A model generated the notes under the pieces. It did not search any database. It was not told the DNA's origin and saw only the letters and a list, made by a program, of their open reading frames with translations. Shown here piece by piece: positions 3,957-32,864 of a stretch of DNA of 64,000 nt. The position numbers and the translations under genes are program-made. The DNA lies in NCBI RefSeq assembly GCF_003018235.1, contig NZ_CP027437.1. One strand, written 5' to 3'. Every line of letters begins with the position of its first letter. Within the stretch, counting starts at the first letter, position 1. Source of the DNA: Escherichia coli. Its GTDB lineage: Bacteria; Pseudomonadota; Gammaproteobacteria; Enterobacterales; Enterobacteriaceae.

Positions 3957-5260
3957 TTACTTCTGCTTCAACGCCGCATACACCTGATCAACTACCCAAC
4001 CATAAGTTGCAATCGGTAGCTGACCGCTTTCGAACATATTGGGATTTTTTTGTGGATCGGCAACTGGCGAATGTGGCTTGTTGCTTAACATCACAATCGC
4101 CATATGATTCACCGGATCGATAACGGTCACCGTCCCGGTCCAGCCAGTGTGACCGTAGGTTTGCGGGCTTGCCAGCGTGCCAAACGTCGGCGTCATGGTG
4201 GCATTACCATTCACGCGCCAGCCAAGGCCAAAAGTGGCATCTTCCTTAGAGCTGGTGGTGAACATCTTCACCGTTTCCGCACTGAACAGCTGCACATCGC
4301 CATAGCCGCCGCCGTTCAGCATCGTTTGCATTAACACCGCAATATCGCCGGTATTGGAAAACAACCCTGCATGCCCGGAAACGCCGCCCATCGAATAAAA
4401 GGCTTTTTCATCGTGCACCTGACCCCAGAGAGTGGAGGTGCGGATATTCGGGAAATGGATCACGCCATCGCGGGTATTGCCGTTGAGTTCCGTGGCGGCA
4501 ATTTGTTGCGGTTTAAAGCCTTTCAGTAGCGGATTAAACACCGTGTGCGTCAGGCCGAGCGGGCGATAAATCGACTCTTCAACATAGCGGTCAAGTGGCT
4601 GACCGGTAACCGACTCGACGATAAATCCAAGCAGCATATAATCGACATCGCTGTAGATATGCTTGCTGCCGGGCTGATACTCCAGCGGCGTGCGCTTGAT
4701 CATCTCCAGCGTCTGGCCTTTATCCTGGGAATATAACGCGCCCGTGACCGCTTTATTCGGGTATTGCGGATCTGCCGGGAAACCGCCGCTGTGATGCAGC
4801 AGATCAGAAATCCGCAGCGTGTTTTTGCCTTTGATCGCATCGTTCGGGCTGTCGGCAAACCCTGGAATATATTTCGCAATCCGATCGTCAGGATGCAGTT
4901 TGCCTTCGCTCATCAGCTTTTGCAGCGCGAAGTTAGTGGCGTACATCTTGGTGTTTGAGGCCAGATCATACAGCGTCCCGGTGGTGGCTTTTACAGGCTG
5001 CGCCATTAACGCGCTGCCATCGTACTTTTTCGCCGCGCCCCAGGCTTTGCGATAAACAATCTGATTATCTTTTATAATCAGCAGGTTTACTCCCGGATAA
5101 CCGGCATCCACCTGCTGGCTAATCCAGCGATCTATCTGGTTAAGCCGTTCGACGTTGAACCCTGCTTTCTCTGGCGAACTTTCTGTCAGAGCAGGGAATT
5201 TTGCGGCGCTGACGCTACAGCTAACAGCCAGCAGAGAAAGATAGAGCATTGTCCGTTTCA
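3957..5260 (-). CDS. yfeW: penicillin-binding protein 4B (class C beta-lactamase fold, SxxK)
   Basis: ORF track 3957..5348; start at 5260 (MKRTMLYLSLL signal peptide) gives 434 aa; 5 bp downstream of murP stop. Confidence 0.88.
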
Positions 5261-5265
5261 TGATA

Positions 5266-6690
<1,425 letters not shown>

Positions 6691-6693
6691 GGG

Positions 6694-7590
6694 TTATTCC
6701 TTTTCCAGAGCTTTGCGAATAAAGCCGCCGTGTTGATCCAGGCGTTTTTTAGCTTCTGCGGCATCGAGATTTTTCAGCACCATCACAATAGCCGTTTTAC
6801 AGTGGCGGTCGCAGGCAACCAATGCCGCTTCCGCTTGCTCAGCGCTACATCCGGTGGCGTTTTTGACGATATTGACCTGGCGTACATGCAGTTTTTCATT
6901 GGTGGCGACCACATCGACCATCAGGTTGCCGAACACTTTGCCGGATTTAATCATCAGCCCGGTGGAGAGCATATTGAGCACCAGTTTCTGCGCCGTACCT
7001 GCTTTCATTCGCGAAGAACCTGTGACCACTTCGGCCCCAACAACTGGCGTAATGGCAAACTCAGCGGTGGTTGAAACGGCGCTCCCGGGATTACAGGAAA
7101 TTCCCACTGTGCGGCAGCCGAGCTGGCGTGCGTATTCCAGTCCGGCAATTACATACGGCGTGCGACCACTGGCCGCAATGCCAACCACCACATCCTGCGC
7201 GGTTAAGCCGATGTTTTTCAGATCGTTAACACCACCTTCCCGGCTATCTTCAGCGCCTTCCACCGCGTGCTGAATGGCATATTCGCCTCCAGCAATCAAA
7301 CCAACCACCAGACCCGGTTTAACGCCGTAGGTGGGCGGACATTCGCTGGCATCCAGAATCCCCAGACGACCAGAAGTCCCCGCACCGATGTAAATCAGAC
7401 GGCCGCCGCCGCTCACCTGGGCGTGAATAACATCGATCGCCGCTGCAATATCCGGCAGTACGCGCTCAACGGCGAGTGGTACGGTTTTATCTTCATCGTT
7501 GATAATCCGGCACATTTCCAGCGTCGAAACGCGGTCAATTTCAGCCGAGGCGGCGTTCGAGCCTTCGGTAATCATCTTTTCAAGTTGCAT
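6694..7590 (-). CDS. murQ: N-acetylmuramic acid 6-phosphate etherase (SIS domain)
   Basis: 298-aa ORF; matches MurQ. Confidence 0.93.
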
Positions 7591-27399: not shown

Positions 27400-28233
27400 A
27401 TGTCTCAGGCTCAGTTTTCTCATAACCCACTGTATTGCGTAGATATTATCAAGACTTATAAACCTGATTTCACGCCACGAGTGGCCTTTATTTTAGGTTC
27501 CGGGCTGGGCGCGCTGGCCGATCAGATTGAGAACGCGGTCGCAATTTCCTACGAAAAGCTGCCTGGGTTCCCGGTAAGTACCGTACACGGTCATGCGGGT
27601 GAGCTGGTGCTGGGTTATCTTCAGGGGGTGCCAGTGGCGTGCATGAAAGGTCGCGGACATTTCTACGAAGGTCGTGGGATGACCATCATGATGGATGCAA
27701 TCCGTACCTTTAAGTTGCTGGGCTGCGAGTTGCTGTTCTGCACCAATGCGGCTGGCTCACTGCGTCCTGAAGTGGGGGCCGGCAGTCTGGTCGCATTGAA
27801 AGATCACATCAACACCATGCCGGGAACGCCGATGGTGGGTCTTAATGATGAACGTCTTGGTGAGCGCTTCTTCTCGCTGGCGAATGCCTACGATGCGGAA
27901 TACCGCGCACTGTTACAAAAAGTGGCGAAAGAAGAGGGGTTCCCTCTGACGGAGGGCGTGTTCGTCTCGTATCCGGGTCCGAATTTCGAGACTGCGGCGG
28001 AAATTCGCATGATGCAAATTATTGGTGGGGATGTTGTTGGTATGTCTGTGGTGCCTGAGGTTATTTCTGCTCGCCATTGCGAACTTAAAGTCGTTGCGGT
28101 CTCTGCGATTACCAACATGGCGGAAGGTTTAAGCGATGTGAAATTGTCACATGCGCAAACGCTGGCGGCTGCGGAGCTCTCTAAGCAGAACTTCATCAAC
28201 CTTATTTGTGGCTTTCTGCGCAAAATTGCCTGA
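27400..28233 (+). CDS. xapA: xanthosine phosphorylase (PNP family)
   Basis: 277-aa ORF MSQAQFSHNPLYCVDIIKTYKPDF... Confidence 0.93.
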   Translation: MSQAQFSHNPLYCVDIIKTYKPDFTPRVAFILGSGLGALADQIENAVAISYEKLPGFPVSTVHGHAGELVLGYLQGVPVACMKGRGHFYEGRGMTIMMDAIRTFKLLGCELLFCTNAAGSLRPEVGAGSLVALKDHINTMPGTPMVGLNDERLGERFFSLANAYDAEYRALLQKVAKEEGFPLTEGVFVSYPGPNFETAAEIRMMQIIGGDVVGMSVVPEVISARHCELKVVAVSAITNMAEGLSDVKLSHAQTLAAAELSKQNFINLICGFLRKIA

Positions 28234-28292
28234 GAAAAACAATAAGAAACGGCCTCGCGGGTGAGGCCAAATGATGCGACAAGGAAACGATT

Positions 28293-29546
28293 ATGAGCAT
28301 CGCTTTGCGCTTAAAGGTAATGTCCTTTTTGCAATATTTTATCTGGGGGAGCTGGCTGGTTACCCTCGGTTCTTACATGATTAATACCCTTCATTTCACC
28401 GGCGCTAATGTTGGCATGGTTTACAGTTCCAAAGGGATCGCCGCGATTATTATGCCTGGTATAATGGGGATCATCGCAGACAAATGGCTGCGTGCAGAAC
28501 GTGCATACATGCTGTGTCACCTGGTGTGTGCAGGCGTACTTTTTTATGCGGCATCCGTAACTGATCCGGATATGATGTTTTGGGTGATGTTAGTCAATGC
28601 GATGGCGTTTATGCCGACTATTGCGTTATCGAACAGCGTCTCTTATTCCTGTCTTGCCCAGGCAGGGCTTGACTCGGTGACCGCTTTCCCGCCCATTCGC
28701 GTTTTTGGTACGGTGGGGTTCATTGTCGCCATGTGGGCAGTAAGCCTGCTGCATCTGGAATTGAGTAGTCTGCAGCTGTATATCGCGTCCGGTGCGTCAT
28801 TGCTGCTGTCGGCTTATGCGCTGACTTTGCCGAAGATTCCGGTTGCGGAGAAAAAAGCGACTACATCGCTTGCCAGCAAGCTGGGTCTGGATGCCTTCGT
28901 GCTGTTTAAAAATCCACGCATGGCTATCTTTTTCCTCTTCGCCATGATGCTGGGCGCGGTGCTGCAAATTACCAACGTTTTTGGCAACCCGTTCCTGCAT
29001 GATTTCGCCCGTAATCCTGAGTTTGCTGATAGCTTCGTGGTGAAATACCCGTCCATTTTACTGTCAGTTTCACAGATGGCTGAAGTCGGTTTCATTCTGA
29101 CGATACCGTTCTTTTTGAAGCGTTTCGGTATTAAAACCGTCATGCTGATGAGTATGGTGGCGTGGACGCTGCGCTTTGGCTTCTTCGCCTATGGCGATCC
29201 GTCAACAACCGGATTTATTTTGCTGCTGTCGATGATTGTTTATGGCTGTGCATTCGATTTCTTCAATATTTCTGGTTCGGTATTTGTCGAACAGGAAGTT
29301 GATTCCAGCATTCGTGCCAGCGCGCAGGGCCTTTTTATGACGATGGTAAATGGCGTCGGCGCATGGGTTGGCTCGATTCTGAGCGGTATGGCAGTGGATT
29401 ACTTCTCGGTGGATGGCGTAAAAGATTGGCATACCATTTGGCTGATGTTTGCAGGGTATGCTCTTTTCCTCGCAGTGATATTTTTCTTTGGGTTTAAATA
29501 TAACCATGACCCTGAAAAGATAACGCATCGTTCAGTTACACATTAA
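28293..29546 (+). CDS. xapB: xanthosine permease (nucleoside:H+ symporter family)
   Basis: 417-aa polytopic ORF downstream of xapA. Confidence 0.92.
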   Translation: MSIALRLKVMSFLQYFIWGSWLVTLGSYMINTLHFTGANVGMVYSSKGIAAIIMPGIMGIIADKWLRAERAYMLCHLVCAGVLFYAASVTDPDMMFWVMLVNAMAFMPTIALSNSVSYSCLAQAGLDSVTAFPPIRVFGTVGFIVAMWAVSLLHLELSSLQLYIASGASLLLSAYALTLPKIPVAEKKATTSLASKLGLDAFVLFKNPRMAIFFLFAMMLGAVLQITNVFGNPFLHDFARNPEFADSFVVKYPSILLSVSQMAEVGFILTIPFFLKRFGIKTVMLMSMVAWTLRFGFFAYGDPSTTGFILLLSMIVYGCAFDFFNISGSVFVEQEVDSSIRASAQGLFMTMVNGVGAWVGSILSGMAVDYFSVDGVKDWHTIWLMFAGYALFLAVIFFFGFKYNHDPEKITHRSVTH

Positions 29547-29598
29547 AAGGATTCGCAGCTCTGTTCCTTGGGGCTGCTTTTATGATAAAGGTTAATTA

Positions 29599-29757
29599 GT
29601 GAAAGATATTTTATTTTCTTCTGGCGTTGGTTTTGGCATTGGTGCTTTGTTTACAATCGTGCGCTTGCCTATTCCTGTACCAAATGTATTACCGGGTATA
29701 TTATCCATTGTGTTTATGTATGTCGGATATCTGGTGGTGAAATACTTTATGCCATGA
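29599..29757 (+). CDS. small hydrophobic protein (52 aa, GTG start), possibly XapX/DUF1427-like
   Basis: Manual translation: (M)KDILFSSGVGFGIGALFTIVRLPIPVPNVLPGILSIVFMYVGYLVVKYFMP-stop; AAGG 8 nt upstream; absent from ORF track (<60 aa, non-ATG). Confidence 0.45.
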   Translation: MKDILFSSGVGFGIGALFTIVRLPIPVPNVLPGILSIVFMYVGYLVVKYFMP

Positions 29758-29797
29758 TAATTTAATACGATGTATTTATTATATGGAGCACTTAATT

Positions 29798-30682
29798 ATG
29801 GAACGCGTATACAGAACAGATCTTAAGTTGCTCCGTTATTTTCTTGCCGTAGCGGAAGAGTTGCATTTTGGTCGCGCAGCAGCGCGTTTAAATATGTCTC
29901 AGCCTCCGCTCAGCATTCATATTAAAGAGCTGGAAAATCAACTCGGCACGCAGCTTTTTATTCGCCATTCGCGCAGCGTCGTACTGACACACGCGGGCAA
30001 AATCTTGATGGAAGAATCGCGTCGATTGCTGGTGAATGCAAATAATGTATTGGCTCGGGTTGAACAAATAGGTCGGGGAGAAGCAGGGCGGATTGAACTC
30101 GGGGTTGTGGGAACGGCAATGTGGGGACGGATGCGCCCGGTTATGCGGCGATTCCTCAGGGAAAATCCTAACGTTGACGTTCTTTTTCGCGAAAAGATGC
30201 CCGCGATGCAAATGGCCCTGCTGGAACGACGTGAACTCGATGCCGGAATCTGGAGAATGGCGACAGAACCACCGGCAGGTTTTACCAGCTTACGGTTGCA
30301 TGAATCGGCGTTTCTGGTGGCGATGCCTGAAGAGCATCATCTCTCATCATTTTCCACCGTTCCGCTGGAAGCGCTACGTGACGAGTATTTTGTTACAATG
30401 CCGCCCGTGTACACTGACTGGGATTTTTTGCAGCGAGTTTGCCAGCAGGTGGGATTTTCACCGATTGTTATTCGCGAAGTTAATGAACCGCAAACGGTAC
30501 TCGCCATGGTCAGTATGGGTATTGGTATCACATTGATAGCGGACAGCTACGCGCAGATGAACTGGCCCGGTGTCATATTCCGTCCGCTCAAAGAACGCAT
30601 CCCGGCAGACTTATATATTGTTTATGAAACGCAGCAGGTGACGCCCGCGCTGGTTAAACTGCTGGCGGCGTTGGCGCAGTAG
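29798..30682 (+). CDS. xapR: LysR-family activator of xapAB
   Basis: ORF track 29783..30682; ATG at 29798 gives 294 aa starting MERVYRTDLKLLRYF. Confidence 0.92.
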   Translation: MERVYRTDLKLLRYFLAVAEELHFGRAAARLNMSQPPLSIHIKELENQLGTQLFIRHSRSVVLTHAGKILMEESRRLLVNANNVLARVEQIGRGEAGRIELGVVGTAMWGRMRPVMRRFLRENPNVDVLFREKMPAMQMALLERRELDAGIWRMATEPPAGFTSLRLHESAFLVAMPEEHHLSSFSTVPLEALRDEYFVTMPPVYTDWDFLQRVCQQVGFSPIVIREVNEPQTVLAMVSMGIGITLIADSYAQMNWPGVIFRPLKERIPADLYIVYETQQVTPALVKLLAALAQ

Positions 30683-30713
30683 ATGAGAGGCACGGGAACG
30701 GCCGGACATAGTT

Positions 30714-30740
30714 GGTCTGATAAGCGAAGCGCATCAGGCA
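30714..30740. repeat. REP element
   Basis: GGTCTGATAAGCGAAGCGCATCAGGCA. Confidence 0.6.
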
Positions 30741-30761
30741 ATTTCGCAAATTGCAGATAGC

Positions 30762-30789
30762 AAAAAAGCGCCTTTAGGGCGCTTTTTTA
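30762..30789. terminator. bidirectional intrinsic terminator (tRNA operon and xapR)
   Basis: AAAAAAGCGCCTTTAGGGCGCTTTTTT. Confidence 0.75.
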
Positions 30790-30792
30790 CAT

Positions 30793-30868
30793 TGGTGGGT
30801 CGTGCAGGATTCGAACCTGCGACCAATTGATTAAAAGTCAACTGCTCTACCAACTGAGCTAACGACCC
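30793..30868 (-). tRNA. lysV: tRNA-Lys (anticodon UUU)
   Basis: Reverse complement reads GGGTCGTTAGCTCAGTTGGTAGAGCAGTTGACTTTTAATCAATTGGTCGCAGGTTCGAATCCTGCACGACCCACCA. Confidence 0.95.
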
Positions 30869-30872
30869 GAAG

Positions 30873-30948
30873 TGGTGGGTGATGACGGGATCGAACCGCC
30901 GACCCCCTCCTTGTAAGGGAGGTGCTCTCCCAGCTGAGCTAATCACCC
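30873..30948 (-). tRNA. valY: tRNA-Val (anticodon UAC)
   Basis: Reverse complement reads GGGTGATTAGCTCAGCTGGGAGAGCACCTCCCTTACAAGGAGGGGGTCGGCGGTTCGATCCCGTCATCACCCACCA. Confidence 0.95.
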
Positions 30949-30994
30949 ACTTCGGTACTTCACATTGCTACAAGAAATTTAGCTGGCGAGAAAG

Positions 30995-31070
30995 TGGTGG
31001 GTGATGACGGGATCGAACCGCCGACCCCCTCCTTGTAAGGGAGGTGCTCTCCCAGCTGAGCTAATCACCC
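30995..31070 (-). tRNA. valX: tRNA-Val (anticodon UAC)
   Basis: Identical 76-nt copy. Confidence 0.95.
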
Positions 31071-31114
31071 ACTTCTCAATTTCTTGCTACACGGCGGAGA
31101 CTACATAAAGTAGT

Positions 31115-31190
31115 TGGTGGGTGATGACGGGATCGAACCGCCGACCCCCTCCTTGTAAGGGAGGTGCTCTCCCAGCTGAGCTAATCACCC
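31115..31190 (-). tRNA. valU: tRNA-Val (anticodon UAC)
   Basis: Identical 76-nt copy; first in the operon. Confidence 0.95.
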
Positions 31191-31207
31191 CCGCTGTGTG
31201 GAGTCGC

Positions 31208-31235
31208 ATTATAGGGAGAGTTCAAAATGAGTCAA
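31208..31235 (-). promoter_or_regulatory. sigma-70 promoter of valU-valX-valY-lysV operon
   Basis: Minus strand: TTGACT - 16 bp - TATAAT followed by GC-rich discriminator GCGACTCC; AT-rich upstream. Confidence 0.6.
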
Positions 31236-31448
31236 CGCATTTTCTAAAGAAATTGTTCGTTCGTCGTAAATTTAAGCAAGATGATCGCAAAACAGACCGT
31301 GTTGCGCAATTTGTCAACGAAAACAATAATGCGTAAGGTTGCAACCCGAACTACATTGAGGAATCAGGCGGGAGTGATAGAATATCGCCCACTCAATTTT
31401 TCCAGGATTTGCCGGTTGTCGGCATCTTTCTAAACGTAAGGCCATTTC

Positions 31449-32864
31449 ATGAAAATCAAAACTCGCTTCGCGCCAAGCCCAACAGGCTATCTGCACGTTG
31501 GCGGCGCGCGTACTGCTCTTTACTCCTGGCTTTTTGCACGTAACCACGGCGGTGAGTTCGTGCTGCGTATTGAAGACACCGATCTTGAGCGTTCCACGCC
31601 GGAAGCTATCGAAGCCATTATGGATGGCATGAACTGGCTGAGCCTGGAGTGGGATGAAGGTCCGTACTACCAGACCAAACGTTTTGATCGCTACAACGCG
31701 GTGATCGATCAGATGCTGGAAGAGGGCACAGCTTATAAATGCTATTGCTCTAAAGAGCGCCTGGAAGCGCTGCGCGAAGAGCAAATGGCGAAAGGTGAGA
31801 AGCCGCGTTATGACGGTCGCTGCCGCCACAGCCATGAGCATCATGCTGATGATGAACCGTGCGTTGTACGTTTTGCTAACCCGCAGGAAGGTTCTGTTGT
31901 TTTTGACGATCAGATCCGTGGCCCGATTGAGTTCAGCAACCAGGAGCTGGATGATCTGATTATCCGTCGTACCGATGGTTCTCCAACCTATAACTTCTGT
32001 GTGGTGGTTGACGACTGGGATATGGAAATCACCCACGTTATCCGTGGCGAAGACCATATCAACAACACGCCACGCCAGATCAACATTCTTAAAGCACTGA
32101 AAGCGCCGGTACCGGTTTACGCGCACGTTTCTATGATCAACGGCGATGACGGCAAAAAACTGTCCAAACGTCACGGGGCGGTCAGCGTAATGCAGTATCG
32201 TGATGACGGTTATTTGCCAGAAGCACTGCTGAACTATCTGGTGCGTCTGGGCTGGTCCCACGGCGATCAGGAAATCTTCACTCGTGAAGAGATGATCAAA
32301 TACTTCACCCTGAATGCCGTCAGCAAATCTGCCAGTGCGTTCAACACCGACAAGCTGCTGTGGCTGAACCATCACTACATTAACGCGCTGCCGCCGGAGT
32401 ATGTTGCTACTCACTTACAGTGGCACATTGAGCAGGAAAATATCGATACCCGTAACGGCCCGCAGCTGGCTGATCTGGTGAAACTGCTGGGCGAACGCTG
32501 CAAGACGCTGAAAGAGATGGCACAGAGCTGCCGTTATTTCTACGAAGATTTTGCTGAGTTCGATGCCGACGCCGCGAAAAAACATCTGCGTCCGGTAGCG
32601 CGTCAGCCGCTGGAAGTAGTTCGTGACAAACTGGCCGCGATTACTGACTGGACCGCTGAAAACGTTCATCACGCTATTCAGGCGACGGCGGATGAGCTGG
32701 AAGTGGGTATGGGTAAAGTTGGTATGCCGCTGCGTGTCGCCGTAACCGGTGCGGGGCAGTCTCCGGCGCTGGATGTTACCGTTCACGCAATCGGTAAGAC
32801 CCGCAGTATCGAGCGTATCAACAAAGCGTTGGCTTTTATTGCTGAACGCGAAAATCAGCAGTAA
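31449..32864 (+). CDS. gltX: glutamyl-tRNA synthetase (HVGG = HIGH and KLSKR = KMSKS motifs)
   Basis: 471-aa ORF. Confidence 0.96.

Follow-up and report, generated by a model that had tools for sequence, protein, structure and literature searches.

The 251-nt interval between the xanthosine symporter gene xapB and the activator gene xapR of Escherichia coli almost certainly holds a real protein-coding gene of the XapX family, xapX, whose 52 codons specify a short hydrophobic protein. Our proposal as a whole, namely a real xapX gene, a product that forms a membrane hairpin, expression by read-through from the xapA-xapB transcript and an accessory role beside XapB, appears somewhat better than an even bet, a grading that is itself a compromise. 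The gene was analyzed in a window of 64,000 nt of E. coli DNA from contig NZ_CP027437.1, where the locus has the following layout:

27400..28233, + strand: xapA, xanthosine phosphorylase, first gene of the operon (ORF list; RefSeq annotation of strain 104)
28290..29546, + strand: xapB, xanthosine/H+ symporter, NHS family MFS (open reading frame; RefSeq annotation of the identical strain-104 region; Pfam Nuc_H_symport on orthologues)
29588..29591, + strand: putative Shine-Dalgarno-like AAGG, 7 nt 5' of the xapX GTG (from the sequence)
29599..29757, + strand: xapX coding sequence, GTG start, 52 codons, TGA stop, product MKDILFSSGVGFGIGALFTIVRLPIPVPNVLPGILSIVFMYVGYLVVKYFMP
29798..30682, + strand: xapR, LysR-type activator (ORF list; RefSeq annotation of strain 104)

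An open frame in this interval had been pointed out in a preliminary description of the DNA, and its position between xapB and xapR at 29599-29757, its orientation, which is that of xapAB, and the quoted peptide were all reproduced. The same applies to the 251-bp gap and to the 40 bp given between the end of the frame and the xapR ATG: the stop codon of xapB, the gene directly upstream of xapX, ends at 29546, the RefSeq-style xapR ATG lies at 29798, and 40 nt separate the xapX stop from this ATG. The purine-rich AAGG reported upstream of the GTG was found as well, at a measured distance of 7 nt rather than 8 nt. The translation reads (M)KDILFSSGVGFGIGALFTIVRLPIPVPNVLPGILSIVFMYVGYLVVKYFMP, with the initiator M/V at position 1, and has a GRAVY of +1.31. 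RefSeq and K-12 both start xapR with the ATG at 29798; its longest frame extends five codons further upstream, to an ATG at 29783.

The open frame by itself is weak proof of a gene, and it is conservation that decides: when the 251-nt gap was shuffled 5000 times with dinucleotides preserved, a + strand ORF of 52 codons or more turned up in 633 cases (12.7%). Orthologues were searched for in one genome per species, which yielded ten other Enterobacterales, and a Salmonella locus was added later. The resulting 11 orthologues represent eight genera besides Escherichia (Escherichia sp. MOD1, Pseudocitrobacter, Entomohabitans, Phytobacter, two Chimaeribacter, Citrobacter On2M, two Limnobaculum, Pragia and Salmonella), and all 11 have exactly 52 codons and an ATG or GTG start at the homologous position, preceded in most of them, at equal distance, by a purine-rich motif (AAGG, AAAGG, AAGGAGG or GGAG). 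Pairwise Nei-Gojobori dN/dS values of the orthologues against the window xapX were 0.03-0.14, and the variable alignment columns were distributed over the first, second and third codon positions as 19, 9 and 45, the third thus varying about five times as often as the second. Nucleotide identity within xapX (69-95%) is at the level of the 3'-terminal 150 nt of xapB and the 5'-terminal 150 nt of xapR; by contrast, outside the genus Escherichia the spacers flanking xapX drop to 27-77% identity, as compared to 92% in Escherichia sp. MOD1, and range in length from 34 to 119 nt. Likewise, K-12 differs from the window at two positions within xapX, both third-position and synonymous, and at six positions in the 52-nt spacer just upstream. 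The conserved length and start, the dN/dS values and the codon-position bias therefore mark the ORF as a gene and not a chance frame, and the pattern of substitutions points to strong purifying selection on xapX wherever it is present. The synonymous bias that the preliminary description had named as a sign of a coding frame was thus clearly present across the Enterobacterales, and the stops or frameshifts in close relatives that it had named as a sign to the contrary were seen only in a minority of strains, where they are due to IS1 insertions or truncations.

The product belongs to a curated protein family. XapX matched the NCBIfam model TIGR03510, "XapX domain", with 64.2 bits and an E value of 5.8e-18 (curated cutoff 27.8 bits), residues 4-50 aligning with positions 2-48 of the 49 profile positions, and comparison with the TIGR03510 protein WP_000651752.1 showed the same protein, with no difference. 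This supports the mention, in the preliminary description, of a small XapX family associated with xanthosine permease loci. The position between xapB and xapR is presumably the source of the family name, and the window xapX fits it. Of the two types of model mentioned there, only the XapX model was matched: a Pfam scan of the window XapX was negative at both E ≤ 1 and E ≤ 10, also for DUF1427 (PF07235), although PGAP uses the name of this domain for E. coli XapX. A profile search of 1.8 billion representative proteins recovered 77 clusters at E ≤ 1e-3, mostly of about 50-90 aa where complete, and relatives with 35-50% identity occur in Firmicutes and many metagenomes. All 37 relatives that were aligned match TIGR03510, and 29 of them touch Pfam DUF1427 at E ≤ 10; the ten considered in detail scored 18.7-26.7 bits on DUF1427, below its gathering score of 27.1 bits, and distant single-domain relatives cover positions 1-50 of the 84-position model. 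Among the 37 members P28 and G43 are invariant and P24, P26, G11 and G15 nearly so. The family signature comprises recurrent glycines of helix 1 (G9, G11, G13 and G15 in the window XapX) and a turn in which a basic residue is followed by L-P-I-P-A-P-x-x-L-x-G. The conserved proline-rich turn joining the predicted helices of XapX reads R-L-P-I-P-V/A-P-N-V-L-P-G, and in the xap clade helix 2 reads LSIVFMYVGY as compared to GIVGxYxGY in most family members.

With respect to public annotation, xapX is already known: the gene, its name and its family model are all present there. A 501-nt region of the window is 100% identical to E. coli strain 104, where the RefSeq coding sequence between xapB and xapR is WP_000651752.1, "DUF1427 family protein", identical to XapX. 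The exact XapX sequence occurs on at least 1000 public contigs under the names "DUF1427 family protein" or "XapX domain-containing protein", and a coding sequence is annotated at 39 of 40 evenly spaced xapX matches in complete E. coli genomes. The curated K-12 MG1655 record NC_000913.3, on the other hand, has no feature between xapR and xapB, although the xapX ORF is intact in this strain at complement(2522518..2522676). The earlier statement that the ORF is unlisted thus holds for the curated K-12 MG1655 annotation, but not elsewhere, since RefSeq/PGAP lists the gene in almost every E. coli genome with the locus. The gap in the K-12 reference annotation, in which an intact xapX goes unannotated, is of practical relevance, and deletions labelled xapAB or xapABR may or may not take out xapX. 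The xap locus was reportedly first described by Seeger in 1995 and by Jorgensen and Dandanell in 1999. Literature searches for XapX, DUF1427, TIGR03510, PF07235 and WP_000651752.1 found no functional study; the sole biological mentions found were a gene-table entry for a 92-aa XapX-domain protein of Citrobacter koseri and a domain census of 2005. In two E. coli ribosome-profiling papers xap was absent from the text and also from one supplement; since standard media do not induce the xap operon, this is weak negative evidence. In a quantitative model of the xap switch, the locus consists of xapAB and xapR only (PMC7205307).

Within E. coli, xapX was found in 4077 and xapR in 4088 of 5426 complete genomes, and 1338 genomes, about a quarter, gave no megablast match to xapR or xapX. 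The similar counts indicate that the whole xap locus (27400-30682) is accessory in E. coli and that xapX travels along with it. The order xapA-xapB-xapX-xapR is found in Escherichia, Pseudocitrobacter, Entomohabitans, Phytobacter, Chimaeribacter, Citrobacter On2M and Salmonella. In Pragia, xapA-xapB-xapX is followed by an ORF of 268 aa (locus 6144-6950), deoC-like (deoxyribose-phosphate aldolase) as judged by eye, whose start overlaps the xapX stop, and then by xapR; Limnobaculum shares this gene order, with an xapX-xapR gap of similar size (about 880 nt). Every xapX of the xap clade has xapB upstream, and its position right after xapB is fixed in the Enterobacteriaceae, Yersiniaceae and Budviciaceae. 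The converse does not hold: Klebsiella huaxiensis, a C. freundii-like genome, Enterobacter, E. albertii and Lelliottia have syntenic xapA-xapB-xapR loci in which the xapB-xapR gap is only 67-100 nt and no trace of xapX was detected. Co-occurrence of xapX and XapB is therefore not strict, as XapB orthologues of 77-89% identity from five genera lack an accompanying xapX. In a neighbour-joining tree of XapB the xapX-less loci fall into three distinct groups, each placed among loci that bear xapX, which implies at least three independent losses of xapX if the gene is ancestral; judging from these loci, XapB clearly works without xapX in the lineages that lack it. Moreover, the functional-looking xapR retained in xapX-less loci shows that the 159 nt of xapX are dispensable for xapR. 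The repeated loss of xapX from otherwise intact xap loci provides natural controls.

Insertion of IS1 was a recurrent observation at xapX among E. coli strains. IS1 was found inserted at no fewer than four different positions of xapX, and this AT-rich stretch looks like a hot spot for IS1. The IS1-xapX fusion proteins run into GNDSNLLIVFYVQIMPDDFVMQLHRF, which is the translated end of IS1, as confirmed at 4233-4945 of one such locus (L003). In strain RM14721 the whole of xapA, xapB and xapX has given way to an IS1A, together with part of yfeN and the 5' end of xapR.

The earlier expectation of a hydrophobic peptide with probably two helices agrees with structure prediction. AlphaFold2, run with the family alignment, predicted a helical hairpin with a helix at residues 2-20, a loop at 21-30 and a second helix at 31-50, at a mean pLDDT of 92.5. 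By alignment and by this prediction XapX also shows the traits of TIGR03510, i.e., about 50 residues, two hydrophobic helices and a proline-rich turn (LPIPAP). It is thus likely, as far as the model goes, that XapX forms a membrane hairpin of two hydrophobic helices, and the predicted hydrophobic two-helix hairpin would place the protein most likely in the inner membrane. The counts of K+R, 1.9 for the termini and 0.9 for the loop, are ambiguous with regard to topology. A Foldseek search with the XapX model found nothing in the PDB at E ≤ 10, and a profile search of PDB sequences returned no XapX relative.

With respect to function, we propose that XapX would be a small, non-essential inner-membrane accessory of the xanthosine uptake module, which most plausibly packs against XapB and tunes its stability or activity; this accessory mechanism is put forward tentatively, with odds clearly below even. 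A link to nucleosides is supported by the fixed place of xapX after xapB across three families of Enterobacterales. In addition, an ORF of 56 aa with 47% identity to XapX was found in an uncultured Enterobacterales genome within a second nucleoside cluster (L016 3702-9332), which comprises a NupC-type transporter, a PhnA/YjdM protein, the XapX-like ORF itself, an uncharacterized ORF of 133 aa, a metalloenzyme-superfamily protein, which by inference is deoB-like, and a PNP-family phosphorylase. Small inner-membrane proteins that bind and modulate transporters are known from several pairs, namely AcrZ-AcrB, KdpF-KdpABC, MgtS-MgtA and SgrT-PtsG. By analogy, XapX may be compared to AcrZ, KdpF, MgtS and SgrT in that it has about 50 residues, is hydrophobic, is encoded next to a transporter gene or within its operon and is dispensable in evolution yet conserved. 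However, it has no sequence relationship to any of them, the comparison being one of mechanism and not of membership, and two helices are predicted for XapX whereas several of these proteins have one.

The main rival to the accessory reading is an unrelated membrane function: XapX would be a generic small membrane protein that has no connection with xanthosine, be it membrane-perturbing, holin-like, toxin-like or an adaptor for another membrane protein, and that happens to be parked after xapB. We consider this possible but on the unlikely side. The contexts of distant family members are heterogeneous: they lie after an FMN reductase gene, between genes for a CsoR-like repressor and RlmH, after a UPF0261/PEP-hydrolase pair and on phage-like contigs, and XapX-domain ORFs are present in Haloarcula tailed viruses, beside the clamp loader, and, as an unannotated frame, in Geobacillus virus E3. 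These unrelated contexts indicate that the XapX family has no general tie to nucleoside transport and, together with the viral copies, they favor an unrelated function, as does the repeated loss of xapX while xapAB stays. A few relatives also resemble other small membrane proteins: weak matches at E ≤ 10 were obtained for the LydA-type holin family of Pfam in 4 of the 37 relatives and for Pfam SpoVAB in 10, the one considered in detail being sub-threshold, and one of the 37 matched a holin PHROG (E 4e-4). Against this, the position after xapB is fixed across the three families, the divergent relative of the uncultured genome is likewise found in a cluster for nucleoside transport and catabolism, and the phage copies adjoin replication genes and not annotated lysis genes. 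Moreover, no holin or toxin model matched the window XapX and a PHROG scan of it gave no match; given also that its context is a catabolic operon, assignment to the phage holins or small membrane toxins was not supported.

A more specific form of the accessory reading, which we hold to be rather doubtful, would make XapX a dedicated partner of XapB that changes its abundance, gating or specificity, and the XapX domain a widespread two-helix module acting on various membrane proteins. If true, XapX would be a hidden fourth component of a xanthosine switch that has been modelled with xapA, xapB and xapR only, and the domain would attach to different membrane proteins in different operons. For the role of small membrane proteins encoded beside transporters, XapX offers a clean and inducible candidate.

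The surroundings of xapX hold two further elements that bear on its expression:

29555..29583, + strand: terminator-like hairpin, 9-pair stem at 29555-29577 with a 5-nt loop, then TTTTAT at 29578-29583 (terminator scan)
29754..29782, + strand: weak sigma-70-like match, candidate xapR promoter (ATGATA, 17 nt, TATTAT), overlapping the xapX stop codon

The hairpin is placed between the xapB stop and the putative ribosome-binding site of xapX. It has the form of an intrinsic terminator, with 5 G-C among its 9 pairs and a U-run directly after the stem, short and interrupted, and its folding energy of -13.1 kcal/mol (z -1.56) is only mildly unusual and weak evidence by itself. In K-12 the stem is retained despite changes in both arms, and a stem of different sequence occurs at the equivalent site in K-12, Pseudocitrobacter, Phytobacter, Citrobacter On2M, Salmonella and Pragia, the stems of the last five being G+C-rich with z values down to -3.7; Entomohabitans has no stem at the site after xapB, so that most, but not all, loci bearing xapX have such a hairpin. 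A promoter consensus scan of 29300-29900 detected no match upstream of xapX, the sole + strand match being the one at 29754-29782, which agrees with the consensus at 9 of 12 positions; such sites are not above shuffle expectation. An Rfam scan of 29300-31500 revealed no RNA family in xapX or the spacers and only four tRNAs downstream. As the sole promoter match is weak and lies at the xapX stop, and as the 40-nt xapX-xapR spacer leaves no room for a promoter of xapR's own to include xapX, we infer that xapX would be translated from the part of the xanthosine-induced xapA-xapB mRNA that continues past the hairpin downstream of xapB, while xapR may have its own promoter at or after the 3' end of xapX. 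If termination at the hairpin were efficient, little xapX mRNA would arise from the xapA promoter. The overlap with the 268-aa ORF in Pragia likewise places xapX inside the catabolic operon and not in a group with xapR.

The same surroundings could suggest that xapX is an upstream regulatory ORF, the translation of which would itself control the transcription or translation of xapR, or the read-through from xapAB into xapR: a terminator-like hairpin directly precedes it and xapR follows, its stop codon is 40 nt from the xapR start, and the candidate xapR promoter overlaps its 3' end. Leader-type ORFs usually conserve their position and not their whole amino-acid sequence. The strong purifying selection apparent on the XapX peptide speaks against such a role, as do the occurrence of the family far from any xapR, the separation of xapX from xapR by the 268-aa ORF in Pragia and by the gap of about 880 nt in Limnobaculum, and the several lineages that regulate xapR without xapX, so that we regard a regulatory ORF as improbable. 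That xapX is instead a chance frame in an AT-rich spacer, conserved on account of DNA elements (the xapR promoter or XapR sites, for example), has the least claim to belief and is effectively refuted by the substitution pattern, the length and start held invariant over eight other genera and the match well above the cutoff of a curated family model, in addition to the relatives in Firmicutes and metagenomes and the xapX-less loci whose xapR lies only 67-100 nt past xapB, despite the open frame expected in roughly 13% of gap shuffles, the weak promoter-like match across its 3' end and the curated K-12 record that omits it.

Beyond xapR, minor differences and features were observed in the window. 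Between xapR and tRNA-Lys, at 30752-30753, the window is without a 156-bp segment that is present in K-12 and strain 104 and in which PGAP annotates an "RtT sRNA". Flanking the segment is a direct repeat, made up of the terminator and the tRNA-Lys 3' end (GCAGATAGCAAAAAAGCGCC...GTGCAGGAT), of which the window has one copy as compared to two in K-12 and strain 104. The window thus differs from strain 104, in spite of their 100% identity around xapX. Farther downstream, three near-identical short + strand ORFs start at 30879, 31001 and 31121 (30876-31190), with translations beginning MMTGSNRRPPPCKGGALPAELI...; they were rejected as genes, since they are read from the strand opposite three tRNA genes that lie in tandem on the minus strand and are annotated as tRNA-Val in strain 104. 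A fourth tRNA, which is tRNA-Lys in strain 104, is located at 30796-30868.
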